64,000 bases of DNA. It comes from Verrucomicrobiota bacterium (lineage in GTDB: Bacteria; Verrucomicrobiota; Verrucomicrobiia; Limisphaerales; Palsa-1400). Positions 48,691 to 63,641 of this stretch are shown piece by piece. The stretch lies in NCBI GenBank assembly GCA_049510745.1, contig JBEKYR010000009.1, forward strand, positions 83,487 through 147,486, written 5' to 3'. The position numbers and the translations under genes were made by a program. The notes beneath the pieces are model-generated. The model had not been told where the DNA came from. It worked only from the letters and a program-made list of their open reading frames with translations, and made no database searches. The stretch's first letter is position 1, and each line of letters opens with the position of its first letter.

Positions 48691-48764
48691 GCGGGTGTGG
48701 TTCAATGGTAGAATGCGGGCTTCCCAAGCCTGAGACGAGGGTTCGATTCCCTTCACCCGCTCCA
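48691..48764 (+). tRNA. tRNA-Gly (CCC)
   Basis: Acceptor stem GCGGGTG/CACCCGC, anticodon loop TT-CCC-AA, T-loop GTTCGATTC, discriminator T and encoded CCA. Confidence 0.97.
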
Positions 48765-48829: not shown

Positions 48830-50203
48830 ATGGCGGCAATCAGACAACAGCCGAAGGGAACCCGTCGCAAACCGGCGAGGCGCCCTTCATTCGATGTAAA
48901 ACGCGATTCCGTGCGGGTGCATGTGCGCTTCAGCCCGCAGAAGATCGGTCGTTACTGGTACGAATCTTGGATAGTCGAATATTCCTTCCGCGGCCAGCGA
49001 ATTCGTGAACGGTGCAGCACCGAGCGAAAGGCCAAGACGTGCGCCGATGTCGCAGCCACCAAATTGGCTCACGGCCAGATGGAGGCTCTCGAGCTCCGAG
49101 GTTCTGACCGCCGCATTTATTTGGCGGCTACGGCGCACTTGAGGCCCCTGAAAATTCGCCTTGACGTTGCCGCGCGCGAATATGCGGACGCCAAAAAAAT
49201 AGTCAAGAACGCTGACCTTCGGACGGTGGCTCATTTTTATCAAAAGTTCGGACGCACACAACTCAAGCCCATCACAGTTCCCGAATTGGTTGAAGAAATG
49301 GCAACGGCGCTCGAGCTGGACAAGCGCGGGGATTACCACGTGCGCGATCTGCGGACTCGATTGGGACGATTTGCCAAGGATTTCCCAGGTCAGATCGCGG
49401 AGATCGTGACCGAAGAAATTGAAACGTGGTTACGGCAATTGACATCGTTGGCGAAAGGAACTCGCTGCGGTGGAAAGCCCAAAGGCCGAACAAGGAACAA
49501 CTACCGCAATGCGATTGTCGAGTTGTTTCATTATGCGCGTAAGCACGGTTATTTGCCCAGGGATTTGGCGACAGAGGCCGACGCCGTCAATCGCGTGTCC
49601 GAGGCCGATAAGGCGGAAAATCAGATCTTCGAGCCGGATCAGATGGATGATCTGCTCTCAGAATCACCGGTACATTTGGTGCCTTCAATGGCGATCAAAG
49701 CGTTTAGCGGTGTGCGCACAGAGGAAATCTTCTTAATGGAATGGGAACACGTTCATTTCCGTCGCGGAAAAGGCTACATCATTCTCCCGCGTCCCGTAAC
49801 GAAGAAGAAGCGCCGGCGCATCCTGCCGATTCTGCCCAATCTTCGAAAGTGGATTGCACCGTTTGAAGGGATGAAAGGACGCATTTGCCAGCAGTGGTCA
49901 ACGCCTCAGGGAGTATTCCAAGCATGGGACCGGTTTGCCGCGAAACGGAGTATCAAGGCGGGGGCAAACCGATTTCGCAACAGCTACATTTCGTACAGGG
50001 TCGCTCAAACATCAGATCCCAAGAAGACCGCATTGGAAACGGGCAATTCGGCTGAAGTGATTATGGAGGACTACCTGGAACTGACCACTCCCGAGGACGC
50101 GGCGCGATGGTTCAAGATCACTCCCTCTGCCAATCGTCTTGAGGCTCTCGCGAAACACGCCAACAAACTAAAGCGTGCTCAAGCAGGCACACGCATTGAT
50201 TAA
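48830..50203 (+). CDS. Tyrosine recombinase/integrase
   Basis: FSGVRTEEI (R296), TKKKRRR, NRFRNSYISY (R383) and GNSAEVIMEDY (Y415). Confidence 0.9.
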   Translation: MAAIRQQPKGTRRKPARRPSFDVKRDSVRVHVRFSPQKIGRYWYESWIVEYSFRGQRIRERCSTERKAKTCADVAATKLAHGQMEALELRGSDRRIYLAATAHLRPLKIRLDVAAREYADAKKIVKNADLRTVAHFYQKFGRTQLKPITVPELVEEMATALELDKRGDYHVRDLRTRLGRFAKDFPGQIAEIVTEEIETWLRQLTSLAKGTRCGGKPKGRTRNNYRNAIVELFHYARKHGYLPRDLATEADAVNRVSEADKAENQIFEPDQMDDLLSESPVHLVPSMAIKAFSGVRTEEIFLMEWEHVHFRRGKGYIILPRPVTKKKRRRILPILPNLRKWIAPFEGMKGRICQQWSTPQGVFQAWDRFAAKRSIKAGANRFRNSYISYRVAQTSDPKKTALETGNSAEVIMEDYLELTTPEDAARWFKITPSANRLEALAKHANKLKRAQAGTRID

Positions 50204-50468: not shown

Positions 50469-50558
50469 TTGAACAAAGCCCCTGCGCGGGGACGCAACCC
50501 GCGCAGCCGTTCAAGGGTGGCTGCGCGGGTTGCGTCCCCGCGCAGGGGCTTTGTTCAA
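50469..50558. repeat. Perfect inverted repeat, 40-bp arms, 10-nt spacer
   Basis: TTGAACAAAGCCCCTGCGCGGGGACGCAACCCGCGCAGCC-gttcaagggt-exact reverse complement. Confidence 0.95.
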
Positions 50559-50892
50559 CGAAAGTGGGCGCTAGGATCCCCTGTCCGCCAGTGGAAAGCG
50601 TTAGTGGCGTCGTCCAACCGCGCGGCCCATCGCCAACGTGAACAAATCGAGCGTCGGCGAATTCCCAAAGCAGGCCGGCGGCAACAGCGCAGATCTTCCT
50701 CTTTAACGGCGATGAGCGAATTCGAGATAATCGGTCCTCGCGAGACAATCGAGGCCGTTCGAGCGGCCCACGATCGCAACACAGGTTCCCGCACCGCAGA
50801 AGCTACCGTCGTTTGAGCTTATTTCCCGCTCGAGCTTGGACGGCGGGGCATTCACGTGATGGGAATTGTGAAGCCAGATAAGTCAAGTAGAA

Positions 50893-51594
50893 ATGATAGC
50901 CAAACATTTGTGCATGCTAAACAACGCATGCAATCAATACGGGCCTCACCTGGCGGGCGGTTTGCTTCCCCATGCCCCGGGTCTGGTGAGCGCGTTAACG
51001 GAAGCGCAACATCAACAACTGCACCGCCATGCGGCCACACGGCTGAAGCGGGCCGCCATGAAACCCGGCATGGAGCGGGTGCTGGCCGGCCGCACTCCCG
51101 GCGACCTGGTCAACGATGCTCTGGAAGCCATCCTGGCTGGCGAGGACTCTTCGGGCAAAGGCCGGAAGCTGCCAGCCAAGGCGCGCCGCAGCGTGGAGGG
51201 GTTTGTCTATCACGTCATCAGTGTGATCGACTCGCAGTTGTCCAACCTCTCGACCTCCGCGGAGGCCAAGAGCGTCCATGCCCCTGCAGGCGGCGAGGAG
51301 GCCGGCCCCGGTTTCGTAAAACTGCCCGACCCCATCGATCCGTCAACGATGCTGGAACAACGCGACACGCTGCGCGCAGTGTCGGAGGGCCTGGAGGAAG
51401 TCTTAAAAACGGAAAAGGTCTTGGCGCCCGTCATTCGCTACTGGCAGTTGAATAGCGAGTTCGGAGGAGCAGAGTTTGATTCCAACCAGGTCTTCAGGGT
51501 GCGGCAGCACATCCGCCGCATTCTGCGCCGCCTGGCCATGGAAGTCTGCCCGCCGTCGCAAGAGCGGATCACGGGAATGGAAATGCTGCGGTAA
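50893..51594 (+). CDS. Hypothetical protein, divergent ECF/sigma70-like
   Basis: QLHRHAATRL...TPGDLVNDALEAIL...FVYHVISVIDSQLSN resembles sigma region 2; basic C-terminal helix. Confidence 0.5.
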   Translation: MIAKHLCMLNNACNQYGPHLAGGLLPHAPGLVSALTEAQHQQLHRHAATRLKRAAMKPGMERVLAGRTPGDLVNDALEAILAGEDSSGKGRKLPAKARRSVEGFVYHVISVIDSQLSNLSTSAEAKSVHAPAGGEEAGPGFVKLPDPIDPSTMLEQRDTLRAVSEGLEEVLKTEKVLAPVIRYWQLNSEFGGAEFDSNQVFRVRQHIRRILRRLAMEVCPPSQERITGMEMLR

Positions 51595-51665
51595 CGCCGA
51601 TTCCGTAAAAAAAACCGGCTGTTTTCCAGCATATATATAATGGAAGGGGTTTTAATCCCCCTCCA

Positions 51666-53144
51666 ATGATGAACGAGTTAAACACACCCATCGACCATCT
51701 CTACGAACAGGCCAAGAAAATCCTGGCCGCCAGTCCCGGCATCGGGAAAAAACGCCTCGGGCAGATGCTGGGAATTAAGACGCCTAGTTCTCGGCTGCGC
51801 ATCTTTCGCTATCACGGTGAAACCCAAGGCCATGGCACCGAGCCTGATTACATTCGGGTTCGGCAGTTGAAGGAGGCCAACCTAGACTGGAGCGCCGCGC
51901 GCATCGCCACCGAATTGGGCCTGACGATCGATCACGCCCGCCTGCACCTAGCGCGCTGGCTGGGAGCTCAGAGCTTTCAAGGCCGCAGTGCCGCTGTCCC
52001 CCCGGTGCCTGCAGCAGAGCCAGAGGCTCCTGCCCACGGGGCAGAATTGCGGGTTTGCGGCCAAGGCGACAACCAGGCTCTGAGCTACCGGGGTTCGCGC
52101 ATCCGCACGGTGGAGGAACTGCTGGCGTACACCCAAACCGACACCGCGGTGTGGGAAATTGAGCGGCAGGAGATCAACAAATGGGAAGTCGGAATGAAAG
52201 ATCCGATGGCGGGGGGAATTTTGACGGAGCCGCTGTTTCAAATCAAACTCTGGCTGCGGCGCAAGGCGGCTGAACAGGCGCTGCAAAAGTTCATGAACGG
52301 AATGCTCGAAAAATTTCAGCAAGCGGCTCCGATCCGCCCCAGCATTCCCCGCCGTTCGGGAAACAAAGGTCTCTTGGAAATTTCGATCATGGATCATCAC
52401 TTCGGCAAGTACTGCTGCGCCATGGAGAGCGGGCGGGCCTATGACGCTGACATTGCGGAGCGCATGTTCATCACCGCGCTGGAGGATCTGCTCCAAAAAT
52501 CGGCGGCGTTGCCGACGGAAAAAATCCTGATGGTATGTGGCAACGACTTTTTTAACACGGACCAGCTGGGCCGGACGACGACTGCGGGTACTCCGCAGGA
52601 CGAGGCGCTGCGTTATCAGGAGTCCTTTTTGCGCGGCCGCCAGCTGTTGGTCCGGGCGGTGGACCGTTTGTGCGAAGTCGCGCCCGTCCATGTGGTGATG
52701 GTGACCGGCAATCATGACACCCAACGTTTATACTACCTGGGCGATGTTTTGGCGGCCTGGTTCCGGAACAACTCCGATGTCCAAATCGACAACAGCCCCC
52801 AACAGCGAAAATATTATCTACACTATCGCAATCTCATTGGGTTCACGCACGGCCATAACGAAAAGCATTTTGACCTGCCGTTGTTGCTGGCCACGGAAAA
52901 TCCCGAAGGCTGGGCGGCGAGCCGCCACCGGGAATTTCACTTGGGCCACTTCCATTCGCGCAAATATAAAATGTTTGTTCCCTCCTTTGATAGAGCAGGA
53001 GTGCTCGTCCGCATTTTGCCTTCGCTGTGTCCGCCCGATGCCTGGCACGCCGCCATGGGCTATCGCTCCCGGCTGTCGGCGGAGGCGCTCTATTTCGATC
53101 CTGAGGAGGGATGCATTGCCAATTTCATCCACAGCCCAAGCTGA
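51666..53144 (+). CDS. HTH-fused calcineurin-like metallophosphoesterase
   Basis: All five motifs: DHH, GNDFFNTD, GNHD, THGH, GHFH; N-terminal WSAARIATELGLT HTH. Confidence 0.85.
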   Translation: MMNELNTPIDHLYEQAKKILAASPGIGKKRLGQMLGIKTPSSRLRIFRYHGETQGHGTEPDYIRVRQLKEANLDWSAARIATELGLTIDHARLHLARWLGAQSFQGRSAAVPPVPAAEPEAPAHGAELRVCGQGDNQALSYRGSRIRTVEELLAYTQTDTAVWEIERQEINKWEVGMKDPMAGGILTEPLFQIKLWLRRKAAEQALQKFMNGMLEKFQQAAPIRPSIPRRSGNKGLLEISIMDHHFGKYCCAMESGRAYDADIAERMFITALEDLLQKSAALPTEKILMVCGNDFFNTDQLGRTTTAGTPQDEALRYQESFLRGRQLLVRAVDRLCEVAPVHVVMVTGNHDTQRLYYLGDVLAAWFRNNSDVQIDNSPQQRKYYLHYRNLIGFTHGHNEKHFDLPLLLATENPEGWAASRHREFHLGHFHSRKYKMFVPSFDRAGVLVRILPSLCPPDAWHAAMGYRSRLSAEALYFDPEEGCIANFIHSPS

Positions 53145-53147
53145 AAA

Positions 53148-54968
53148 ATGCCTATGTTTGACTCAATTGGTAGACCACTTGTTGTGTGGCCCTGTTATGA
53201 ACCCGCTGGAGAGCAGGTTGCGCTCACGGAGAACGAGCTGGTGCGGCATGTCTTGCTGCTGGGTTCCACCGGCTGCGGCAAGTCCACTCTGCTCGCTGCA
53301 GCCATGGGCCAGATCCTGGTCCGTTGCGAGGAGAAGGTGGGCCTTTTGGTGTTGGACGCGAAAGCAGACGGCTTGGCGGATCAAGTCCGGGATGCCGCCT
53401 GGCAGGCTGGCCGGAGCAAGGATGTGATGATCTTTGGTCCGGAGGGAGACCATACCCTGGACCTGTTCGAGCCTTTGGGTTCGCTGCAGGGCGTGGAGGC
53501 CATCACTCGGCGCATCATGCTCGCCGCCGATCCCATGAGCGGCGACAATGCCTACTGGCAGACGACGACGGCCAGCATGTACAGCGCCGCTTTCAGCCTG
53601 TATGCCGCCGCGGGCAAGCCGGTCCATTTCAGCGCCGTGATGGAATTCCTGCGGCGCTGGTTCATGTCGCCCACGACGACGCCGGAAATCCAGGTGCTGA
53701 TTGATCAACTGGAGCGGGATAAGAAGCCGCCGCATCCTTTGGTGACGGGTGCCATCGATCAAGCAAAGTTGTGGCAGGACTTGGATCTGCGCACGCGCAG
53801 CGTTGTGCAGAGTTGTTTGCTCAATGTGCTGCGGCCGTTGCAAAGCGCGGCGGCCGCCAGCACGTTCGCGGCGGCTTCGCGGCGTGGTGGCAACCCAGCC
53901 CAGGCCGCGACCGTGGGAGCCATCTGCGTCGCGTCCGTCAATGCCTTGGCGCATCCGGAGCTGGCACGCTTTCTTTTTCGGCTGGCCAAGCAAGTGTTTT
54001 TTGAAGCCGTCCAGCAGCGGTCGGGTGGCATGCAGCGCCTTTGCGGAATCGTCGCAGATGAGCTGCCCTTGGTAGTCACGCGCGAGGACGCTAGCCAGCT
54101 TGCCACCCTGAGGAGCAAACGTTGTTTTTTCTTGGGGGCCAGCCAGGGCCTTCATGCCCTCGCGGAGCGGATCGGCACGAGTCCTATGCATGCCCTTTTG
54201 ACCAACTTCAACACGACTGTGTTTATGCGCTCGACCGAGGCCGAAACAGCGATTCATGCACAATTGACTTTGGGCACGCGCACCGATGCCGTCAAACGCA
54301 GGCCGGAGAGCGAGGGAGGCGGCCTGGGCTTGCTTCCGCCCTGCTCCAGAGAGCCCATCGAAACCGAGGTGTCCGTCTGCCCAATAGGCGCGCTGGCCAA
54401 ACTGGATACCCATCAGGGATACGTGGCGCGTGCGGATGGCTCTCGCACCTTGCAGCCCGTGTGGTTCGTTCCGTGGTTCGAACAGCCTCTAACAACGTCG
54501 GCCGAAAAGTTCACCTCCGAGCACGTTAAGTCCCTGATGGAACGCGCAGGATTCAAGCTGCGATGCTCGCCCTGCGCCGTGGCCTCAGCGGCCGCCAACA
54601 TGGAGCGGACGGACAACAGAGCACTGCAGGCGGCTGTCGTTTTTTTTCGGGCGAAGGCATGCATGCTTCCACGCGGCCTCGACACATTGCCAACTTGCTG
54701 GCTGCGGGCCATTCCGGGGATTCTGTGGCACATGCGCAAGCCGCACTGGCAGCAACTGCCGTTCTTCATTGATCGGTTGAAGATAATCGATGGCCTGCTC
54801 GTGGTGGGCTTTGCACAAGAGGAGCCGCAATCCTGCTCACGTTTGACTCTCTGGGATCGGATCCGAATTGGCTTGAACGCGAGCCTCTATCCGAGTCCCT
54901 GGCGGGCCATCAAACGGCATCACGCTCTGGCCCTTCAGCGCAACGGCCAAAATCTTGAAATTGGATGA
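53148..54968 (+). CDS. VirD4/TraD/TraG-like P-loop ATPase without TM anchor
   Basis: RHVLLLGSTGCGKST, LVLDAK, IVADE, LRSK...ASQ and NFNTTVFMR motifs. Confidence 0.8.
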   Translation: MPMFDSIGRPLVVWPCYEPAGEQVALTENELVRHVLLLGSTGCGKSTLLAAAMGQILVRCEEKVGLLVLDAKADGLADQVRDAAWQAGRSKDVMIFGPEGDHTLDLFEPLGSLQGVEAITRRIMLAADPMSGDNAYWQTTTASMYSAAFSLYAAAGKPVHFSAVMEFLRRWFMSPTTTPEIQVLIDQLERDKKPPHPLVTGAIDQAKLWQDLDLRTRSVVQSCLLNVLRPLQSAAAASTFAAASRRGGNPAQAATVGAICVASVNALAHPELARFLFRLAKQVFFEAVQQRSGGMQRLCGIVADELPLVVTREDASQLATLRSKRCFFLGASQGLHALAERIGTSPMHALLTNFNTTVFMRSTEAETAIHAQLTLGTRTDAVKRRPESEGGGLGLLPPCSREPIETEVSVCPIGALAKLDTHQGYVARADGSRTLQPVWFVPWFEQPLTTSAEKFTSEHVKSLMERAGFKLRCSPCAVASAAANMERTDNRALQAAVVFFRAKACMLPRGLDTLPTCWLRAIPGILWHMRKPHWQQLPFFIDRLKIIDGLLVVGFAQEEPQSCSRLTLWDRIRIGLNASLYPSPWRAIKRHHALALQRNGQNLEIG

Positions 54969-55745
54969 GCGCTTAACCGCGTTTGAACGGGTTTGAACGT
55001 CGCCACCGCGCCGCTCCGCCTCTCGATTCTCATCGCTGCCTGTTTCAGTCACCCATCTGGTTCTAGGCGCGCCGCACCCTTTCGCCCGCCACGCGCCCTT
55101 CCCGCTTTGGCGGGACCAGAGAATCGTTTGTACCACGCCGCCGCCCATTCAGTCACGGATGGTTATCCAGGTCGGTGTCGCGCACCACCCGGATCCCAGA
55201 CCCTTGCGAGCTGACGACGGGAGCAGACCATCTCGGGCTTGACGCCCAAATCTTAATCCCCCAACAACTAGCCTTTCTTTTTGCCAAGCTTTTTCTTTGG
55301 GCAATGCCAAAGAAAAAGCGGCCTCGCCTACGCTAAGGCAGTGGCTGCCGCTGCCAACCAGTCCTGCGCTTATACCAGACCCTTTCCAGGCTCGCGGCAG
55401 CCTCCGCCAATTATCCAAAGAGCATCGTCTCATCAAATTCCTTGCCCCGCATCACGTGCCAAGCGGCCTTGGCCAATTGAGCGCGGCCCCGTTGAAGCAA
55501 CGCTAATCCTTCCGAGCGGCAACCAAGTACCATTCTCCTGCCCCTGAAATTACAAGGCCGAGCTAATAGATTGCAGGTAAGCCGTCGTTTAACGTTCCAA
55601 CGTTCGGTTCGAGGTGAACCGTAAAATGTAAAACGTATGAACGGAACTAAAATGGATGAACTCACGCGAGAGACGACTAAGGCCGTTATCCCGTTTGCAA
55701 CAACAGCCTGAAGACAGCACCACTCACTGGAAGGAGGTGAGAAAA

Positions 55746-55838
55746 ATGCGCACAAAAGATGACCTGGACAACTATGCGAATCAGTTGAATCCAAACAACG
55801 ACGAGTATTGGCATAGCCGCGGCGAGGAAAAGCCGTAA
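55746..55838 (+). CDS. 30-aa micro-protein with NQLNPNN motif
   Basis: Strong SD AAGGAGGTGA 5 nt upstream; MRTKDDLDNYANQLNPNNDEYWHSRGEEKP; hairpin downstream. Confidence 0.7.
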   Translation: MRTKDDLDNYANQLNPNNDEYWHSRGEEKP

Positions 55839-55845
55839 ACTGAAA

Positions 55846-56997
55846 TCAAGGCTGGCGGGAGAAGAACCCGCCAGCCCCTTCCTTCTTGCGGGCTTTCCGG
55901 GCGATTTTTAGGTGGAGGAAAAAACGTCGGTAGTACCGTTGGATTCGCGCGGTATCGTTGTTGAATCCAGCAGCGATCTGCTTGAAGTGATTTTCCAACC
56001 AAAAGGTAATCATCCACGACAAGAGGCAAAAATCCCCTGTCTCCTCGCGTTGATCCAAGGGCAGCTCGCTGCGCTTTGAAATGATTTGCCATGAGCGCCG
56101 GACATTCTTGACGGATGGCCGTTTCTTTCCACTTGTCCAGCAGCTGACCTCCACTGCCTTCGCGTTAATCTCTGACAGAGCAGGGCCATCGCCGTCCAGT
56201 AGCAGCCTGGCCCATTTGCGGCGGGAGCTTTTGCCTGTCCGTTTAATCGCTCCTGCTGATTGCATGGCGTGTTCGAGCCAGACCTTTCGAAATGTTAGTG
56301 GTTCCGGATTTATGACAATCGCGGTGATGTGCTTCTCGATCGACAACCAGAATGGGGCGTGGTGCGATGAAGCGGCACATTCTTCCAGGACTGCCAGTGC
56401 CATCAACGGGCGGTCAAACAGTTGACGGATTAAATGGATCATCTGAATTTTATCCATGGTCGGCCTTCTCGATCTAAGAAAGCGCAGGCGTTGAGGTTCG
56501 GCGAACCGATACGGACTACCAGGAGCGAGCAACGCGTTCCTCCACGCCGTCAGAAGCTCTTCCTGACCGACGAGCACACCACCGTGACGTGGCCATATTG
56601 CTTCCTCTTGAATCAAAAAATCAGCTGCCGGCTTGAGTTCGTGAAGTGGCGGCTGAAGACGTGGATAGTTTGCGCAAATTTGAAAGAACCGCTTCCATGA
56701 GCGGTCCGTGCGGTAACTTCGCCCTTCGGCGATTGTGCCCTTGATCCTTGCCTTCCACGCGTCGAGTTCCTTTTTGGAGCTGGGGTGTGGTTGGTACAGT
56801 AATTCGTTCTCCGGGATACTTGTGCTCCAATTCCGCCCGCGACATTCCTTCCTTGTCGGAAAATAGACTGGCCAATGTTCTTCGATGGATTGCGCGATGC
56901 GCTTCGAGAGCGGGCAACGAAGGTGCTTCGGATAGAACAGATCCCGAAAAGAAGGGTCGTTCTTTTCGAGTATGGCAATAAGTTGCCAGGGATTCAT
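55846..56997 (-). CDS. Hypothetical protein, possible XRE-like HTH near the C-terminus
   Basis: 383-aa ORF; EVSCWTSGKKRPS resembles an XRE recognition helix. Confidence 0.6.
   Translation of the reverse strand: MNPWQLIAILEKNDPSFRDLFYPKHLRCPLSKRIAQSIEEHWPVYFPTRKECRGRNWSTSIPENELLYQPHPSSKKELDAWKARIKGTIAEGRSYRTDRSWKRFFQICANYPRLQPPLHELKPAADFLIQEEAIWPRHGGVLVGQEELLTAWRNALLAPGSPYRFAEPQRLRFLRSRRPTMDKIQMIHLIRQLFDRPLMALAVLEECAASSHHAPFWLSIEKHITAIVINPEPLTFRKVWLEHAMQSAGAIKRTGKSSRRKWARLLLDGDGPALSEINAKAVEVSCWTSGKKRPSVKNVRRSWQIISKRSELPLDQREETGDFCLLSWMITFWLENHFKQIAAGFNNDTARIQRYYRRFFLHLKIARKARKKEGAGGFFSRQP
55850..55876. terminator. Hairpin between convergent genes, possible terminator
   Basis: GGCTGGCGGG-agaagaa-CCCGCCAGCC, 10-bp stem. 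Confidence 0.5.
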
Positions 56998-57092
56998 GGC
57001 GAGGTGGTTCCTTTGCGATCATCGCACAAATTGTGCCGCCGTGTCCATCGACGAACGGCACCGCAATGTCAACGGAACTATGTGAATGGCGA

Positions 57093-57809
57093 TCAATTGA
57101 GTATTTTCCAGACCGGATTGGTTACCTGGGTCTTTGCAGCTTTTCGGAACTCCTTCCTTTTGGTGTAACGGCGTGGCCGAATCGAGCGTTCTTTTTTCCA
57201 CTCCGCCAAGCGCGTGTACACCGTGCGCAACGGCATCTTGATGCGGAATTCTGATTTCAGTGCTTTCTGTGCTTCCGCTGCTGACGGAGGTTTCCCAGTG
57301 AGTTCGTGTTCCTGGTTACACCACTTGAAAAAGGAGGGCTTCAATCGGCGCAGTTCTAAAATGCTGCCCTTTCGCGTATGCGAGAGAGTTCGCTTGAGTT
57401 TTCCTTGGCTCAGATATTCCGCGTCCAACCTTAAGCGGCCGTAAGGCACGCCGCAATCGGTGGAGACGGTGCTCATGGTCACCACCTCAGTTCCTATTTT
57501 TTTCAGGGCCGTGGTCCTTCTGGGGCCAAGTTGGCGTGCGCAAGCCTCAATTTCCGCAATTTGCGCCTTTGTCCACCGGTATCTTCGGTGATTCCCTTTT
57601 GCCCGTTTATCACGCAACGGCAGCCAATACCCCAGCCTCTTGCAACAGCGTCTTGCGGTGCGATTGGAGATTGGGCCTCCTACTCTCCCTGGGGCAGCAA
57701 ACCACCGGATGACCCCTTCAATCGACCTCACCAATCGCGCATCCAGCTGAAGTTTTAGTTGGTCCAGCCGCTCTTCCGTTATTTCCCTCGGTCTTCCGCG
57801 AATGGTCAT
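57093..57809 (-). CDS. Basic multi-HTH protein with IS630-like HTH motifs and no DDE domain
   Basis: GRPREITEERLDQL...ISNRTARRCCKRLGY and EAQKALKSEFRIKMPLRTVYTRL; start trimmed to ATG 57809. Confidence 0.55.
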   Translation of the reverse strand: MTIRGRPREITEERLDQLKLQLDARLVRSIEGVIRWFAAPGRVGGPISNRTARRCCKRLGYWLPLRDKRAKGNHRRYRWTKAQIAEIEACARQLGPRRTTALKKIGTEVVTMSTVSTDCGVPYGRLRLDAEYLSQGKLKRTLSHTRKGSILELRRLKPSFFKWCNQEHELTGKPPSAAEAQKALKSEFRIKMPLRTVYTRLAEWKKERSIRPRRYTKRKEFRKAAKTQVTNPVWKILN

Positions 57810-57957
57810 ACCGGGCTTCTGCCTTCGTAAGTTGTTCGTTATCAATATCACACCGCTCTTGGGTGAAGCGGAGCGGCTCCAGCCAAAATATACGCCAAAG
57901 CGCGATTTAAGTCCAATATTAATAGCGAGGAAAATTGTGCCCACGGGAAAATGAGGT

Positions 57958-58251
57958 GTGAAAAAGCTTCGCCAGGTGGGTGCAAGGGGGAGTCGGGGTC
58001 AGCGACGGTGGCAAAGATCTGCCATCGAAACTGAGGGGCAAAAGTGGCTGACCCGCGAGCAGATGTCCGTTCGATTGGGTGTCTGTATCCGTACGATAGA
58101 CCACTGGGTGGAAGAAGGGACTTTACCCTGCTTCAAGCACGGGGGCGTCGTGAGGTTTGACCCCGATGACTGTGACGCAGCTCTGCGAAAGTTCTATCGC
58201 CGGTCGCGCTGGCAATCGGAGGACGAAAACCAGGAGGAGACCTCGTTATGA
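57958..58251 (+). CDS. Excisionase-like HTH_17 protein
   Basis: WLTREQMSVRLGVCIRTIDHWVEEGTLPCFKHGGVVRFD. Confidence 0.85.
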   Translation: MKKLRQVGARGSRGQRRWQRSAIETEGQKWLTREQMSVRLGVCIRTIDHWVEEGTLPCFKHGGVVRFDPDDCDAALRKFYRRSRWQSEDENQEETSL

Positions 58252-58462
58252 CACCGTTCCTCGCAATGCCGTTTCCTTGCCTGGCTCCCGCGTTGCGGTT
58301 GGCCCGGCTGGGCTCATGCGACGGCCATGTTCTTAGCGCAGAGGGGATGCCGCCGGACAGGATTTCCCCGCTGGCCGTCATTTCCCCGGGCGTCGCTTCT
58401 GTCAAGTGTAAAACAACTACGCCGAACAAGAATCAAGTATCGATAGCAAAATGAATTGACCC

Positions 58463-61400
58463 ATGGAGCCGACCCCACAACCTCAGCCGAGTCCGGGCCA
58501 GAACGGCGATGGCCAAGGTCAGAATTCAAAGGCCGGCGGCATAGTCTATAAGGGGAGGTTCCTGCAGATTTACCATTCGATTGAACCGGAAGGCGCGGAC
58601 AGTTATGCCCTATGGGGCCAGTTGCCGGTTTTCAACGGAGTGCCGCCCAAGGATCTTGAAGCGCTGCTGGTGCCGGGCAAGACGCCGGATGTTTGGGGAC
58701 AGGTCTTTAAAACTCTGGAGGAGGCGAAGTACAAGCTCGAAAGAATTGAGGCCAATTACCCCAGCCCTGCCCTGGGACGGACGACTCTAACAATCATGAC
58801 CGAAGCGGAGCAGCGCGGCGCCGAAGACTTGGTGCTTAACCTGAGAAAGCTGGCGCCTGATCATCCCGACTATATCGGCGAAGCGAAGGACCTTTTCCTG
58901 AAGATTCATGCAAACCAATTGGATCCCATGTGGTGCCAGGAATTCATTGGTATCATGATCAAGGACCTAGGGCCAACCGTACGCGAAGGTCGCCCCACCA
59001 AGTGGCGGTGGGCAATCAACGTCGTTTGCGGCGAATACGGTATACCCACCGGCGACTTTGACCGCAACGGGGAGCCTGTCAAAGATATGCCTTTGGGGGC
59101 CATAACCACGCCAAATCTGCTGGTCCTTAAGGAAAAGTTGCCTCGGAATGCGGCGCGTGCATTATTCCCGATTCTGCGGTTCGAGTTGGACTACGCTGTC
59201 AATAAAAAGTATCTTCGCGAGAACCCAGCCAAGGACATCGCGATACCGGAGCTGCGCGCGGAAAAGGACGCGATGGCGGACAAGGAGGTTGTGGTGGACT
59301 TTCCCGCCCAGGTCCAGATCGCCTTTAACTTGGCGGCCCAGCACCGCAACGGTTATTTCCTGCCGCACGTCACTTTCATGTATCAGCCCCACGTGCGGCC
59401 CGACGGCGAACTTCACCGTTTAAACCCGAGCCGGATTTACCTTGACGAACGCTTGGCGAAAATTCACTCCAGCAAGACCGATCATCGGCGGCTGATTCAT
59501 TTGAGCGTGCCCACGTGCCTGATTCTGCAAAAACGTTGGGATGGAAAATCGCTCAAATTCGATGGTTTCAGAACGTTCTTGGCCATGATGCGGGCGGCGC
59601 AGGGATATGAGGTCGGCGAAGTACCAAAATGGTTTGCGCAGCAATTGCCTCCAACGTGGTCGTTTGCGTTGTGGCAAATAATCGATCTGCGCGCCTTTGC
59701 CAGAAAGTTGCAAACCGGAGCAAATCCTGTTTATGCCTGGCTGCGAGACCAAATGGGCGAGGAAATCAAACAACCTTTAGAACGGAATGGTCAAGACCAA
59801 GTGAATGCGCGCGAGTTGCAAACCATGCTCATTGGGAAGCTTAATAAGATCGTCGAGGGACCTTCGCTGATCGATCTGCCGGTTTTCGAGGACACCGAAC
59901 TGACGGCAGAAATCATTGACCTGCAGAAAAAGAATCCCACAGGGGATGAACTGCGGCGGCTCAACCGGATGGTGTTGCCCGAAGCCTGCTGCGAATTGGC
60001 GAGGATACCACGCATGGTTCAGGATATTCCGCGGCATACGGGTCGTTCCGCTTACGCCAAGTTCGAGGAATGGGTTGATGATACTTACGACAGGGAAAAA
60101 ACCCGGCGCGTGTTCAAGGTCTCCTACGACGCCGTGCTTACCCCTAGGCAAACGGCCGCGCTTTATCCAATTCTTCCGGAAGGATTTCCCGTGACCGACG
60201 AAGAGCGGCAAGCCATGTTGGAAGAATTAGCGCGCTTTAATCTATTAAAAGATGCAACCCTCCCGGAGCCTCCTATTGTGCCCACGTATGTCGCCAATAA
60301 ACCGTCAAAAGAGCATCAGATTCCAAAGATTGCCGACGAACTGCTTGAGCGAATGATGTTCAAACAGGGAATGAAAGCCACAGCCAAAGAGCTCGTAATT
60401 TCCGAATTCTGGTTGCGCGCCATCTGCAAAGCGAAGGCTCTTCGCACGCCCCCAGGCGGACGATTCTCCGGGCTCAATCCCGATGACTTCCCGAAACGGC
60501 CGCCCCTGGTAACCCTTTCCAATGCAGATCTTGAAAAATCGATCAAAGACCACCATGGCGTTGCCATGACCGCTCGCGCGCTTGAAATCAATGCCGAAGC
60601 GCTGTTGGCATATTGCATCCTGAACAACATTCGCCTGCCGAGCCGCCGTGAGATTGCGGCATGGACGAATACGTTGCCCAGGGTAACGGAATCGCCCCGG
60701 CAAATCAGGGCGTTGTTGGCCCGGGAACCCGTCGCGGAAGTTGCTAAAAAAGCCGGCCGCAACGTAACGGAGGAACATTTGCGAAAATATTGCCGCCGCC
60801 ACGGCATCGAAATCCCGGAACAACCCTCGGCCGGGCCGGGCGTCGCGGATATCGACGCTGTCAAAACAGCATTTGTCCGGACATTGGCTAGCCGCAACGT
60901 CAGGGATCTCGAGACAGTTGAAATAATCGAACTGTTGCTCAGGCACGCTCCGCACGGCTTAACGGATATGGAGATTATCGAAATCCTGGGGACGCACCAG
61001 GTTCAGATGACACGGCCGATGGTTCAGCACGCCGTCGTTGTGACGAGCCGGGGGCGCCTTCAGCGCTATAACGGCCGGGTGCATCTTCTGGTTCAAGAGG
61101 CAATCCTCGATTTGGACAAGCTAAAGCAAAGCGTCCAGCAGGAACTGCAAAGCCAGAAGCAATGGAATAAGCTGCAGGCCATTCTCTTTGTGCTCAAAGA
61201 GGCGAAGACCGGAATTTCACTTGCGCAGCTGGTGGTCGTGCTTTCCTGGTTTGGGATCGAAATGGCAGTCGAACCGCTTAAAAACGCGCTCCGCCAGTAC
61301 CAGAAACGCGCACTGGTAGAGTTCTACAAGGGGATGGTCACCTTGCCAGAGAACATTCGACCTTGCGCGATCCGGCCGGACGAGACCGAAGCAACTCCAA

Positions 61401-61972
61401 ACCTTGGTGAAATCACCGCCAAGGTCCAGATGGATTACGCGGCGCTGGCAAACAAGCAGTTCACCAACGTCGAAATGATGGACTTTGTTCTGAGCCGGGC
61501 CCCGCAAGGCCTCTGGGTCGACGAATTCCTTGCCATTACTAAATCGTTCGGTGTCGATTTTAAGCGGCATTGCATCCACTCCGTAGTAACCCACGAGGCT
61601 CCAGAAAGATTCAAACGCCAATCCGGCCGTTTGGTACGCGAAAAGGCCGCCCCCACACTCCTCCCCAGGGTAGCGATCCAGACTCTTCAGGCTGTGGTTG
61701 ATCAAGTCCAAGTCTCCCCGGTCGATGAGAATGGCGAGGTGGCCTTGCAGATTCTGATTGACTTTCCCCAGGGGCTTCATCTTAGGGAACTCCATGTGGC
61801 CATAGGATTGGCCGGCCGGCACCCCAATTACGATTCATTTCGCAGAAACTTGCATGTCTACGCCAAACGCAATCGCTGCCTCATAACGGACGCCCGGGTC
61901 ACTTTTGTTGTGTCCAGTCAAACCCAAAACCCGTTGCCGACACAACCATCGCAAGAGGCCATAGCCGCATGA
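58463..61972 (+). CDS. Giant tyrosine recombinase-like protein with inserted domain and tandem HTH/wHTH repeats
   Basis: YLRENPA core-binding motif, VRPDGELHRL (R312), SKT (K338), DIPRHT (R524) and VFKVSY (Y555); about 600-aa repetitive C-terminus. Confidence 0.75.
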   Translation: MEPTPQPQPSPGQNGDGQGQNSKAGGIVYKGRFLQIYHSIEPEGADSYALWGQLPVFNGVPPKDLEALLVPGKTPDVWGQVFKTLEEAKYKLERIEANYPSPALGRTTLTIMTEAEQRGAEDLVLNLRKLAPDHPDYIGEAKDLFLKIHANQLDPMWCQEFIGIMIKDLGPTVREGRPTKWRWAINVVCGEYGIPTGDFDRNGEPVKDMPLGAITTPNLLVLKEKLPRNAARALFPILRFELDYAVNKKYLRENPAKDIAIPELRAEKDAMADKEVVVDFPAQVQIAFNLAAQHRNGYFLPHVTFMYQPHVRPDGELHRLNPSRIYLDERLAKIHSSKTDHRRLIHLSVPTCLILQKRWDGKSLKFDGFRTFLAMMRAAQGYEVGEVPKWFAQQLPPTWSFALWQIIDLRAFARKLQTGANPVYAWLRDQMGEEIKQPLERNGQDQVNARELQTMLIGKLNKIVEGPSLIDLPVFEDTELTAEIIDLQKKNPTGDELRRLNRMVLPEACCELARIPRMVQDIPRHTGRSAYAKFEEWVDDTYDREKTRRVFKVSYDAVLTPRQTAALYPILPEGFPVTDEERQAMLEELARFNLLKDATLPEPPIVPTYVANKPSKEHQIPKIADELLERMMFKQGMKATAKELVISEFWLRAICKAKALRTPPGGRFSGLNPDDFPKRPPLVTLSNADLEKSIKDHHGVAMTARALEINAEALLAYCILNNIRLPSRREIAAWTNTLPRVTESPRQIRALLAREPVAEVAKKAGRNVTEEHLRKYCRRHGIEIPEQPSAGPGVADIDAVKTAFVRTLASRNVRDLETVEIIELLLRHAPHGLTDMEIIEILGTHQVQMTRPMVQHAVVVTSRGRLQRYNGRVHLLVQEAILDLDKLKQSVQQELQSQKQWNKLQAILFVLKEAKTGISLAQLVVVLSWFGIEMAVEPLKNALRQYQKRALVEFYKGMVTLPENIRPCAIRPDETEATPNLGEITAKVQMDYAALANKQFTNVEMMDFVLSRAPQGLWVDEFLAITKSFGVDFKRHCIHSVVTHEAPERFKRQSGRLVREKAAPTLLPRVAIQTLQAVVDQVQVSPVDENGEVALQILIDFPQGLHLRELHVAIGLAGRHPNYDSFRRNLHVYAKRNRCLITDARVTFVVSSQTQNPLPTQPSQEAIAA

Positions 61973-62053
61973 AAGCCGCATGAGGTTGGGCATCTCCGGC
62001 CTCTTCGAGCCTTGAGAACACCAAGCTCTGGATTCCCGGTTGCTGGATCAAAC

Positions 62054-62170
62054 GATGCCGCCTCTGTCCGTTAGTTCACCATTTTCGCCTTCGAACCAAG
62101 GGACATGGACGGTTAAAGGCAGGCCGTGCATGTTCTCTGAGATGGTGAAATAACGGATAGATGCGGCGTT
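62054..62170 (+). ncRNA. Candidate structured RNA or ssDNA hairpin
   Basis: 29-bp outer and 18-bp inner stems; 7 of 11 non-Watson-Crick positions are G.U on the + strand. Confidence 0.45.
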
Positions 62171-62579
62171 TTCGCCGTTGGTGCCATCCTGGCGGGTTGG
62201 CCCCCCTCCAATTAGCCGGCGCCGCGCTGGCGTTGTACTCCTACCTAACCATCGAAGATGTTGGCCATTGCGGCGGGATGTATTAACCTAAGAACGGCAG
62301 TTGAAGTGTAAACCTCTTGGGTTTCCGGATTCATTGATGCCCGGCGCGGCGACGTTTTTCGTGGATTTGGACCGTGGCTAACCTGGCACCCACGCCTGTT
62401 GCCCAAACCAGGCCCGGCAAGCGGCCTCCCGCTTCCGGAAAGGCGTCAAAATCCGCTCCCGAATCCGCTCCCTGCACTGCTGGCTGCTCAACTGCTCCGC
62501 AGCATTCCTGAGTCCGGAAAACCTCGATCCGCCGGCGGCGGCGATCCGACCAGCAGCGGCCGGGCCATCCCGCGCATCG

Positions 62580-62815
62580 AACCGGATCACGCCGACCCGA
62601 TTTACCTTGCCAAACACGGCGCCTTCATCGCCGCGCTGGGAAAGCGTTATGACGGCACTCCGGGCGTGGAATTCCTCGACATCGGTTCCTACGGCATCTG
62701 GGGCGCGTGGCATTCGACCCATCCGGCGCCCGTCGCCGTGCGCAAGCAGACCGTGGACATGTACTTGCAGGCCTTCCCGAAGACTCCCCTCCGGCGGCGG
62801 CGGCGGGCGGTTTAA
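62580..62815 (+). pseudogene. Internal fragment of a DUF4832/GH-A clan glycoside hydrolase
   Basis: DPIYLAKHGAFIAALGKRYDG...DIGSYGIWGAWH...YLQAFPKTPL; both ends missing, expected WGEWH reads WGAWH. Confidence 0.6.
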
Positions 62816-62995
62816 CACCCCCTGCCAGCGTTCGTTGAAGGCCATGGACCCGAATCCGGCTACGCAGCCCTGCCGTTTGGATCCGGTGGAGGTTTCGGAA
62901 TGGATTTACGCTCACCCCTCCTTTTGGATGCGGGATGTTCATGAGTGCCATCCGAAGGAAGACCCCCCGACAGGAGCACCGGGCATTTTGAGGGT

Positions 62996-63037
62996 GTGCA
63001 ATTCTGCGCTTGCACAATTCCTCAAATTAGTTGAGGA
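62996..63037 (+). promoter_or_regulatory. Two inverted repeats upstream of the AbiEi-like gene (putative autoregulatory operator)
   Basis: GTGCAA-N8-TTGCAC and TCCTCAA-N5-TTGAGGA. Confidence 0.45.
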
Positions 63038-63044
63038 TATGTGC

Positions 63045-63641
63045 ATGAATAAAAACGATTCTTTTGCGGCTCTGATGACGGTGGCGCAAGACCAGCAAGG
63101 TTACTTTACCACCAAGCAGGCGATTGAGGCCGGTTACGCGGACAACACGCACCCGTATCACGTCCATGCGGGGAATTGGGAGCGAGTGTACCGGGGTATT
63201 TATCGGATAGCGCATTTTCCGCCGCCAGAGGACGGGGAGATGATGGCCTGGCTGCTTTGGTCACGGGGGCGCGACGAAAAGCCGGTGGCCGCGATGTCGC
63301 ACCAAACCGCCCTCAGCCTGTTCGAGTTGGGAGATTTCAACACGGCCAAAGTCCACATGAGCGTGCCAAAAACATTCCGGCGAAACAGCCCGACTCCCAA
63401 AGCGGTCGTGCTCCACCGCACAACACTGGCACCCGCTGAGGTCACGCAACTGCGCGGCCTGACGGTATGCCGCCCGCTACGGGCGCTGTGCGACCTGGCC
63501 AACGCAAACCCGGATGCCGCCGCCGATCTCCGCCCCATCGCGGTCGAGGCGCGGCGGCGCGGTCTTATCACCGAGCGCGAACTTTCAGGCATGAAAGAGC
63601 GGAAGGATGCGCGGAAAATCGTCGCCACCCTGTTGCCATGA
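63045..63641 (+). CDS. Type IV TA AbiEi family antitoxin
   Basis: AQDQQGYFTTKQA, WERVYRGIYR, SHQTAL..F.L and GLTVCRPLRALCDL motifs; start trimmed. Confidence 0.85.
   Translation: MNKNDSFAALMTVAQDQQGYFTTKQAIEAGYADNTHPYHVHAGNWERVYRGIYRIAHFPPPEDGEMMAWLLWSRGRDEKPVAAMSHQTALSLFELGDFNTAKVHMSVPKTFRRNSPTPKAVVLHRTTLAPAEVTQLRGLTVCRPLRALCDLANANPDAAADLRPIAVEARRRGLITERELSGMKERKDARKIVATLLP

Follow-up and report, generated by a model that had tools for sequence, protein, structure and literature searches.

A 64,000-nucleotide stretch of DNA from a peat bacterium (termed here the window) contains a tRNA-Gly mobile island, inside which lies the gene of a large tyrosine recombinase (YR), P0001. The features of the locus are collected in Table 1. 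Several other contigs of the genome carry 3' fragments of tRNA-Gly(CCC), the tRNA gene that forms the island's left attachment site; because the contig ends 360 nt past the AbiEi-type gene, the island's right end lies beyond it. The xis-like gene stands upstream of the large open reading frame (ORF), from which it is separated by 211 nt. This ORF is uninterrupted, and contigs from two public runs (one of which may be the source sample) span it with zero differences. A single RNA run covers the gene in short scattered pieces only. The reads of 4 of 22 runs, taken over all contigs, contain no joint near the gene and give a flat depth, a result as compatible with excision or replication as with their absence.

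Table 1. Coordinates (in the window) of the island features and of the domains encoded by the large ORF
Feature	Position	Strand	Basis or remark
tRNA-Gly(CCC), island's left attachment site	48691..48764	+	ARAGORN
Island's own 457-aa tyrosine integrase	48830..50203	+	81% identity to sister-island (C10) integrase
Perfect inverted repeat, 40-nt arms, 10-nt spacer	50469..50558	.	
Three-gene module: 233-aa protein of unknown function, metallophosphoesterase, TrwB/TraD-like P-loop ATPase	50893..54968	+	conserved
xis-like HTH_17 gene	57958..58251	+	Pfam HTH_17 E 5e-8
P0001, 1169-aa YR with 3 HTH and 4 winged-helix repeats	58463..61972	+	
Arm-binding-type domain, aa ~26-97	58538..58753	+	three strands and a helix, looped insertion (AF2)
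Core-binding domain, aa ~153-265	58919..59257	+	VIA match to integrase core-binding domains
Catalytic domain, part one (R312, E316, K338)	59273..59647	+	
Helical insert of ~117 aa, aa ~398-514, splitting the catalytic domain	59654..60004	+	pLDDT mostly 88-98
Catalytic domain, part two (D521, R524, H525, K546 at H/W, Y555)	60005..60187	+	
Three tandem ~46-aa three-helix HTH repeats	60320-60460, 60506-60646, 60680-60823	+	AF2
Four ~64-aa winged-helix repeats	60896-61096, 61151-61351, 61454-61642, 61718-61909	+	extra helix before each
Non-coding ~145-bp stretch, candidate target site	62120..62263	.	79% identical downstream of P0002-type gene
AbiEi-type antitoxin gene	62607..63641	+	true start probably ~63030

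Architecture of the large recombinase

P0001 is a tyrosine recombinase, in which arm-binding, core-binding and catalytic domains are followed by three helix-turn-helix (HTH) and four winged-helix repeats. A first, sequence-only reading had recognised the N-terminal half as an integrase, which holds, but had missed both the arm-binding-type domain and the domain inserted at residues ~398-514. The arm-binding-type domain aligns from residue 25 with that of lambda Int (1z1b) and also with those of ordinary integrases; residues 153-269 match the core-binding domains of several integrases by VIA (Z 9-10.4). The model aligns with lambda Int over residues 25-556 (Z 10.6, rmsd 15.3, 261 residues aligned) and with 1p7d (Z 10.1, rmsd 3.6, 204 aligned). 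The YR fold expected between residues 230 and 580 is borne out by Foldseek, where the catalytic fold finds XerD first (E 1.5e-4) and all five rows below 1e-3 are YRs. Residues 518-558 have a pLDDT below 50, because the input alignment set the C-terminal motif of the relatives on the insert, so that the model does not display the active site in assembled form.

By sequence, P0001 itself gives nothing significant, and no YR profile match, in Pfam, NCBIfam or PHROGs, and a single ArsR match (E 0.89) in the PDB; its relatives do match YR profiles (P0017 to PF00589, E 1.6e-6; P0006 to phrog_1, E 2e-14). Kinship to the island's own integrase, proposed by eye in the sequence-only reading, shows through profiles only, the best BLASTP value being a non-significant E 0.37, and that integrase is not the nearest relative. 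The ordinary integrases of the order (L053-L080, ~400-450 aa) are homologous over residues 25-575 and share the same D-x-x-R-H motif, but stop soon after the tyrosine; a tRNA gene lies beside them in 5 of the 28 loci scanned.

The insert is missing from six of nine aligned family members. Domains of its type, which are unannotated, occur in many unrelated proteins of one bacterial group, among them kinases, transporters, envelope proteins and recombinases. A relationship to phosphomannose isomerase, the best structural row, was rejected as too weak (Z 5.0), and an origin from a palindromic element is not supported, the DNA being unstructured (z 0.19). First matches in the ESM Atlas (0.77 for the insert, 0.85 for the tail) serve as leads only.

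Within the tail, the three short repeats (residues 620-666, 682-728 and 740-787) are mutually homologous at an hhalign probability of 98%, and the four long ones (812-878, 897-963, 998-1060 and 1086-1149) at 80-99%, within-class scores that none of 20 column shuffles reached. The earlier proposal that these are HTH and winged-helix modules likewise stands. The long repeats are modelled as three helices with a beta-hairpin wing (pLDDT 80-95); W1, W2 and W4 align with winged-HTH (wHTH) chains over ~60 residues (Z 7-8.7, rmsd 1.4-3.5), values that are common in such comparisons, yet the rows are nearly all wHTH, and W3 is assigned to the fold through its homology to W1 (99%). Pfam matches to the HTH repeats (RWP-RK, E 5e-4; HTH_17 in a relative, E 1e-4) fall below the cut-off. 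Foldseek with the tail against the PDB returned nothing below E 1e-3; its top rows, the SelB C-terminus (E 1.3e-3) and TFIIIC tauB (E 7.5e-3), have a similar tandem winged-helix architecture but are not significant and give no sign of common descent, and two unnamed viral rows have a TM of ~0.1. Searches found no relative of the tail in 400 other genomes of the class and no stand-alone array in a limited candidate set.

Relatives, catalytic residues and selection

Six long-form proteins, 28-48% identical, have a common layout. They form one clade (SH-aLRT 100) whose sister group consists of three HTH-only integrases and which is set among ordinary integrases of ~420 aa; both trees are quick trees. 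A 724-aa YR with HTH repeats (on C58) stands apart in one tree and with the clade in the other (support 63). In P0006 the recognisable arm-binding domain is lost, and the seven repeats and full active site are kept. An unrelated YR lineage of the same order (L101, L102, L142) bears arrays of Cro/C1-type HTH domains. The family profile matches 202 of 401 genomes of the order; relatives were found in none of 63 pattern matches in viral contigs and in no phage or plasmid record, and a literature search found no published description of the long-form family.

Between close pairs, dN/dS for the P0007-type gene is 0.28-0.41 over the whole gene and 0.30-0.53 over the arrays, and it lies below 1 everywhere except in two sparse domain comparisons; enzyme and array are both under purifying selection. 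That P0001 is a decayed or chance fusion, as the broken copies P0010 (N-terminus cut by an insertion sequence) and L042 (a fragment only) might suggest, is thus hardly credible and already largely refuted, given five full-length types with identical domain order and dN/dS values mostly below 1. The absence of a YR fold, the absence of HTH or wHTH folds, and a one-off fusion of decayed ORFs had been set beforehand as refuting the sequence-only reading; none of the three was found.

R312, K338, R524 and Y555, the residues originally picked out in the 1169-aa ORF, fall in the catalytic positions when 30 ordinary integrases are aligned with it and are invariant in all nine family members; together with E316 they are invariant in all six long-form proteins. 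Since 31 of 256 shared columns are invariant overall, and 14 of 127 polar ones, four named polar sites would all be invariant by chance with a probability of about 1e-4. The first-histidine position of the H-x-x-R motif is occupied by D521, which is normal for the lineage because all 30 ordinary relatives have D (27) or N (3) there. GNS had correctly been read as replaced, and the nucleophile Y555 as retained. At the H/W (or H/N) position P0001 has K546 and three long-form relatives have His; the three insert-bearing proteins, P0001 included, have K, K and D, and the 30 ordinary relatives N (25), H (1), Q (1) or a gap (3). K546 weakens the case for full activity but not that for descent, and on the favoured reading P0001 is probably still cleavage-competent. 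The invariant Arg and Lys could, however, be kept for DNA binding alone.

An unlikely alternative is that P0001 is a recombinase-derived DNA-binding regulator or scaffold that controls excision or expression, its array and YR clamp holding island promoters or att arms, and that the branch with the insert cleaves DNA poorly or no longer at all. It is solely in the branch of P0001 that the H/W residue is lost and the catalytic domain split; there are seven DNA-binding folds, and in several loci the xis-like operon with the large YR faces a divergent gene. A precedent is MrpR, the SPbeta repressor, a YR fold turned repressor that keeps the Lys and Tyr found in P0001 (PMC10516654, in the portion available) and that is among the structural matches to the model (8a0a, Z 7.0). 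But MrpR, according to Table 3 of the same account, retains neither of the two Arg nor either of the two His, and it is without an array of HTH domains, whereas both Arg, the Lys and the Tyr have persisted through the divergence of the six long-form proteins.

Neighbouring genes and candidate target sites

The three-gene ATPase module occurs both with and without the large YR. Its ATPase is found in 9 of 30 genomes, which include all three of the other family genomes that carry the long YR (hypergeometric 0.02, the kin not being independent), and in G397 it shares a contig with the long YR. These associations, together with the finding of no known relaxase family among the island ORFs scanned, would suit a YR-type relaxase or nickase (MOB_M) that nicks oriT for mobilisation, with the ATPase as coupling protein. 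Like P0001, the MOB_M proteins MpsA, TcpM and MobK are each a second YR-like gene in an integrase-bearing element (PMC6414798, PMC8152469 and bioRxiv 10.64898/2026.01.13.699239, each as far as its accessible text goes), and the last of these finds an integrase in the vicinity of 96% of MOB_M genes. Nevertheless this reading is improbable. The MOB_M relaxases are ~250-330 aa long (Tyr 319 in MpsA, Tyr 179 in MobK) and, in the accessible text of PMC8152469, MobK, TcpM and MpsA are without the arm- and core-binding domains, both of which P0001 has, so that the relaxase option of the sequence-only reading is weakened. Moreover, the ATPase has a metallophosphoesterase as its partner and falls well short of the cut-offs for coupling proteins, and most carriers of the module are without a long YR, such as G006 and G022, whose module DNA is 76-79% identical to that of the module adjoining the P0002-type gene. 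The island being incomplete, a true relaxase may lie past the contig end.

Relatives have AbiEi/AbiEii pairs, an SNF2 helicase and an Eco57I-type methylase as neighbours, and the large-YR gene shifts between contexts within such islands. Both points would fit a defence enzyme in which the array detects DNA of foreign or phage origin and the YR domain breaks that DNA or traps covalent adducts; this is improbable, however, as it amounts to guilt by neighbourhood, and the xis linkage and kept arm-binding domain suit recombination better. The P0002-type relative is also preceded by a xis-like gene (46-47% identical), and in the sister island the slot after xis is occupied by a serine-recombinase-like gene, which tells against the earlier suggestion, made from position, that a replicase lies there.

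The palindrome at 50469 noticed in the sequence-only reading is real (z -15.7 against shuffles); the hairpin at 62054 proved no better than shuffles (z -1.0). That P0001 acts on this perfect palindrome inside the island, whether as a hairpin telomere resolvase or as a replication initiator, is very improbable, and the earlier note's option of a hairpin resolvase is not supported. TelK and ResT do combine YR-like catalysis with an HTH-like DNA-binding domain at the C-terminus that resolution requires (PMC11317167, in the part available), but each has one such domain against the seven of P0001, and their targets are hairpin telomeres, whereas P0001 has no linked palindrome. The palindrome lies 8 kb from the gene, has a non-symmetric centre and is not co-conserved with it: there is no match in G003 and G004, nor in G021 (beyond 20 nt outside the arms), all of which have the gene, and related arms are present in G025, where the large-YR gene was not found. 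The nearest relatives are integrases, and no telomere resolvase was among the 50 structure-search rows listed, which integrases fill, though such a list does not exclude them.

The ~145-bp stretch was found after two of the six protein types only, and its folding is not above that of shuffles. No tRNA gene or fragment longer than 19 nt was found in nine loci of long-form relatives, no att-like repeat of the P0006 upstream region was found, and Rfam gave no match in six loci. Near-identical copies differ in their breakpoints downstream of the gene.

A possible accessory recombinase

P0001 is quite possibly an accessory recombinase, in which the array replaces or extends arm-site binding. This reading is favoured because R-K-R-Y is invariant, because the clade lies inside the integrases, because a serine-recombinase-like gene follows xis in the sister island, because P0006 keeps the array without the arm-binding domain, and because a parallel lineage has Cro/C1 arrays. 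Counted against it are that no att site has been identified, that the island already owns an integrase, that the insert-bearing proteins have K, K and D at the H/W position, and that 117 residues split the catalytic domain. A long-site recombinase is thus the best supported of the three options in the sequence-only reading, at the level of interpretation.

The accessory recombinase would have arisen from an ordinary integrase of the arm-binding type by stepwise gains: first came the three HTH repeats, next the four winged helices and last the insert, in a loop of the catalytic domain that tolerates one. Y555 would cut DNA at a core site, and the seven-domain tail would bind flanking DNA, doing in cis the work of arm sites and helper proteins; together with the xis-like protein, the enzyme might excise, resolve or reshuffle a sub-module within the island. 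Just downstream of the gene, the conserved 145 bp would be the first candidate site by xis-int-att order, an order seen in lambda and Tn916.

With the arm-binding-domain integrases (lambda Int, IntTn916, IntBPP-1, IntSXT) P0001 shares the order of arm-binding, core-binding and catalytic domains, the R-K-R-Y residues, a three-strand, one-helix arm-binding domain, a xis-like neighbour and a location in an island; it differs from them in its 570-aa tail, the catalytic-domain insert, Lys at H/W and the lack of an adjoining tRNA. A C-terminal array is not listed for these integrases in the available part of Smyshlyaev et al. (PMC8138268), on which the shared points also draw.

A broader and rather unlikely proposition is that these islands encode a class of recombinases that are self-sufficient because their DNA-reading tail is modular and exchangeable, such tails having arisen on two independent occasions within a single order. 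If so, the tail would read ~100 bp, replacing arm-binding and host factors, a tail swap would retarget the enzyme, and the two origins would use different HTH families (three HTH and four winged helices versus Cro/C1). Such enzymes would be a natural counterpart of engineered fusions between recombinases and DNA-binding domains.

More generally, the directionality and long-range specificity of tyrosine recombinases are thought to come from an N-terminal arm-binding domain and helper proteins. Here up to seven C-terminal DNA-binding domains have been gained in steps readable from the tree, in parallel with a second HTH-array lineage, and, P0001 being unmatched in Pfam, NCBIfam and PHROGs, such island recombinases are being missed. 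The tail may allow long-site recognition without helper proteins, and with this family one could test directly if specificity is movable into a modular tail, a question that bears on recombinase engineering.

The P0001 family of long recombinases

The sequence-only reading had described P0001 as a protein of 1169 aa, and its open reading frame is indeed stop-free and encodes that length. The same DNA recurs with zero differing letters in contigs from two public sequencing runs, one a contig of 12,006 nt spanning 50529-62534 of the window, the other spanning 57429-62554 (one of these runs may be the source sample); the runs containing DNA of this stretch are mostly peat metagenomes. P0001 has no significant match in Pfam, NCBIfam or PHROGs. 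Querying 1.84 billion representatives yielded 243 matches at E 1e-3 (150 listed). A one-off fusion, one of the outcomes that would have told against the sequence-only reading, is not what was found: among the matches listed, together with another search, are at least five further long forms (recombinase followed by HTH and winged-helix repeats) at 28-48% identity, namely P0002 (41%), P0005 (48%), P0006 (39%), P0007 (33%) and P0010 (28%). The matches listed also include P0014, P0016 and P0017, which are shorter relatives with recombinase and HTH repeats only, and several fragments.

Pattern scans traced the family to 18 metagenome loci (29 of 189 pattern matches) and to four loci of the genome collection (5 of 50 matches); viral contigs gave none. 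Of the four, three are filed as Verrucomicrobiota and one, L047, as Candidatus Saccharimonadales; copies at other loci share 90-98% DNA identity with the L047 gene, and a mislabel or mis-binning is possible. By its relatives the host is probably a peat verrucomicrobium, of the order Limisphaerales/Pedosphaerales. The long form is present in 4 of the 31 genomes of the host's family and in 2 of the 401 genomes sampled from its order; the tail was sought in a further 400 genomes from the class and not found. Some copies are damaged: P0010 is interrupted by an insertion sequence, and one other copy is a fragment.

Nei-Gojobori dN/dS between P0007-type pairs (n = 4, not independent) is 0.28-0.41 overall, and by part 0.17-0.41 for the catalytic domain, 0.40-0.53 for the HTH repeats and 0.30-0.41 for the winged-helix repeats, with one sparse domain value exceeding 1. 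For the P0001 type, partial near-identical pairs alone give 0.47 (15 changes) and 0.30 (6 changes); between P0001 and P0005, dS is saturated.

Recombinase half, repeat tail and inserted domain

A profile from six insert-free members (first 436 positions) matches ordinary integrases of ~400-450 aa in 202 of the 401 order genomes (best E 1e-54), and two of three such integrases tested pass the PF00589 cut-off. When P0001 is aligned with 30 of them, R312, E316, K338, D521, R524, H525, K546 and Y555 fall into place, which bears out the earlier assignment of R312, K338, R524 and the nucleophile Y555. That assignment had come from a by-eye alignment with the separate island integrase; BLASTP gives no significant link between those two proteins (best E 0.37). 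The first-His position holds D in 27 and N in 3 of the 30, and D521 is therefore the norm of the lineage; the H/W position holds N in 25 of the 30, H in P0006, P0007 and P0010, and K, K and D in P0001, P0002 and P0005, respectively. Of the 256 columns shared by the six long forms just 31 do not vary, and of the 127 polar ones 14; R, E, K, R and Y are all among them; the chance of four named polar sites all being invariant is about 1e-4. These arginines bear on the main rival reading, that P0001 is a regulator: MrpR (PMC10516654, Table 3) is a precedent for a tyrosine recombinase fold without activity, but it has lost both arginines, whereas the long forms keep both (R312 and R524 in P0001), and we regard this role as rather unlikely.

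The fold proposed for the N-terminal half was recovered by modelling: the AlphaFold model of residues 1-612 (mean pLDDT 81) comprises a three-strand, one-helix N-terminal domain followed by core-binding and catalytic domains, Foldseek matches it to XerD (E 1.5e-4), and the match to lambda Int covers residues 25-556 (Z 10.6, rmsd 15.3, 261 aligned). Residues 518-558 are unresolved in the model; the input alignment matched the C-terminal motif of the relatives to the insert and had three rows at these residues, so that this gap carries no weight for or against an intact active site.

The reading of the seven repeats as HTH and winged-helix modules is likewise supported: they form two homology classes, and the modelled folds agree. 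In profile-profile comparison H1-H3 match one another at 98% probability and W1-W4 at 80-99%, within-class scores are matched by 0 of 20 shuffles, and cross-class scores are low save for H3-W3 (68%). The model of residues 600-1169 (pLDDT 81, pTM 0.39) shows three three-helix units and then four units in which an additional helix accompanies three helices and a beta-hairpin. Structural comparison of W1, W2 and W4 gives matches to winged-helix chains (Z 7-8.7); values of this size are common, yet nearly every chain listed is a winged helix. From these folds, and from five of the seven repeats being basic, we infer that the tail would bind DNA.

Residues ~398-514 of P0001 are an inserted segment, missing from six of nine members aligned, at a loop of 0-20 aa in ordinary integrases. 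The majority of matches in the relatives search came through this segment, whose profile marks 134 of 153 proteins (42 of them with 2-6 copies), a count that is circular although the first matches are independent. It matches no family in Pfam or PHROG, no structure was found in its DNA, and it is modelled as a confidently folded helical domain. Matches occur in 22 of the 31 family genomes (1-6 copies per protein) and in five open reading frames of the own genome; hosts among 20 carriers scanned include a kinase, an SLBB export protein, LptE, TssG, CHASE2/TIR, P-II and a HAD-like protein. The insert is an unannotated helical domain of ~115 aa that lies within, or is joined to, many proteins of this bacterial group that are otherwise unrelated.

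Two quick maximum-likelihood trees (42 and 26 rows) were built from the recombinase domain with the insert removed. In these the six long forms make one clade (SH-aLRT 100), containing a subclade of three insert-bearing proteins (97-98); the clade joins three HTH-only proteins (99-100) and lies among ordinary integrases, away from the island integrase. Stepwise gain of domains would be the simplest reading of these trees, which are midpoint-rooted only. Three further long tyrosine recombinases of the order (L101, 1073 aa; L102, 867 aa; L142, 1070 aa), and a partial fourth, bear arrays of Cro/C1-type HTH repeats, and two also bear the insert domain, at the N-terminus. These proteins are a second, unrelated lineage; the two placed in the tree have long branches far from the P0001 clade. 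At tRNA-Pro, an integrase-like gene precedes L101 by 1.3 kb, and L142 stops 245 nt short of a 46-nt tRNA-Arg 3' fragment. Contig C58 of the own genome encodes a 724-aa tyrosine recombinase whose catalytic motif is complete and which carries two HTH repeats; its gene follows that of a 578-aa integrase.

Genomic surroundings

The island runs from tRNA-Gly(CCC) through its own integrase, a 233-aa gene, a metallophosphoesterase, a TrwB/TraD-like ATPase, two unknown genes and an xis-like gene to P0001; its right end is missing because the window stops at the end of contig C9. The P0002-type gene also has an xis-like gene ahead of it and shares the ATPase module; the P0005 and P0007 types adjoin DNA common to other carriers of that module, with AbiEi/AbiEii, helicase and methylase genes as neighbours. 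The module was detected in 10 of the 31 family genomes and in at least 13 of the 401 from the order, in most of them with no long recombinase. It consists of three conserved genes (an unknown gene, the metallophosphoesterase and a TrwB/HerA-like ATPase), and may represent a nuclease-ATPase pair instead of a coupling protein. P0001 could be read as a MOB_M relaxase, and its position as second tyrosine recombinase fits (bioRxiv 10.64898/2026.01.13.699239 and PMC6414798), but MOB_M proteins are without arm-binding and core-binding domains (PMC8152469), both of which the P0001 model has; we consider this improbable.

A sister island on contig C10 has an integrase 81% identical to that of the window, situated after a tRNA-Gly 3' fragment (which suggests tandem islands), and an ATPase gene remnant; there the gene after the xis-like one encodes a protein of 673 aa that has Recombinase and Zn-ribbon domains and, judged by eye against the motif, presumably an N-terminal resolvase domain. 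In the nine scanned loci of long-form relatives, neither tRNA genes nor long tRNA fragments lie nearby. Contigs C73, C74 and C75 of the own genome are small and carry arrays of 11, 8 and 4 tRNA genes, one called tRNA-Stop(tta).

A perfect 40-nt inverted repeat follows the integrase and precedes the three-gene module, and related arms occur on three contigs of one comparison genome (G025). The sequence-only reading had named hairpin resolvase among the possible roles of P0001, and this palindrome among the DNAs on which to assay it. Such a role would have a parallel in the TelK stirrup and the ResT C-terminal domain (PMC11317167); the palindrome is not co-conserved with the gene, however, which tells against that proposal and leaves it very improbable.

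Downstream of P0001, a non-coding stretch of 145 bp has a 79% identical counterpart downstream of the P0002-type gene and a lengthy match in no other of the 31 family genomes; near-identical copies part at differing points in and after it. From ~62250 to 62528 the DNA varies among such copies (40, 280 or 1305 nt), and the next ~270 nt (to 62805) resemble a host-type gene fragment (40% to an open reading frame on C7) with a 12-nt direct repeat on either side. A solitary partial CRISPR repeat in the window agrees at 24 of 25 nt with the repeat unit of an array that lies downstream of the P0002-type gene. It may be a relic or encode a solitary-repeat anti-CRISPR RNA, and we take its type to be I-G-like. 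Contig C69 opens with a related 3-repeat array adjoining a tRNA-Gly 3' fragment.

Coordinates of the features discussed
Location	Strand	Feature
Window 50469-50558		inverted repeat
Window 50893-54968		three-gene module
Window 55474-55498	-	solitary CRISPR repeat
Window 58463-61972	+	P0001
Window 59654-60004		insert of P0001
Window 62120-62263		145-bp stretch
L033:8825-9515		CRISPR array
L048:5380-7401 (C10)		sister-island large serine-recombinase-like gene, after xis
C2:33898-36897		further insert-domain ORF
C25:44379-45860		further insert-domain ORF
C20:68565-72467		further insert-domain ORF
C1:62523-66416		further insert-domain ORF
L101:6136-9354		Cro/C1-array recombinase
L102:2819-5419		Cro/C1-array recombinase
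L142:10399-13608		Cro/C1-array recombinase
L103:2496-4667 (C58)		724-aa recombinase

Predicted role and place among tyrosine recombinases

P0001, whose domain anatomy, conservation, selection and context are matters of observation, is tentatively regarded as an accessory site-specific recombinase, a reading to which we give somewhat less than an even chance: it would cleave DNA through its tyrosine, its seven-repeat array would bind flanking DNA, and the xis-like protein would be its partner. The classification in PMC8138268 names, in the sections concerned, arm-binding, core-binding and catalytic domains, DUF3701, doubled core-binding domains and small insertions, and no C-terminal array; neither the architecture nor the insert was found described in the full-text literature searched, from which most subscription journals are absent. 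The long-form architecture is real, conserved and apparently new among tyrosine recombinases, and its activity is predicted.
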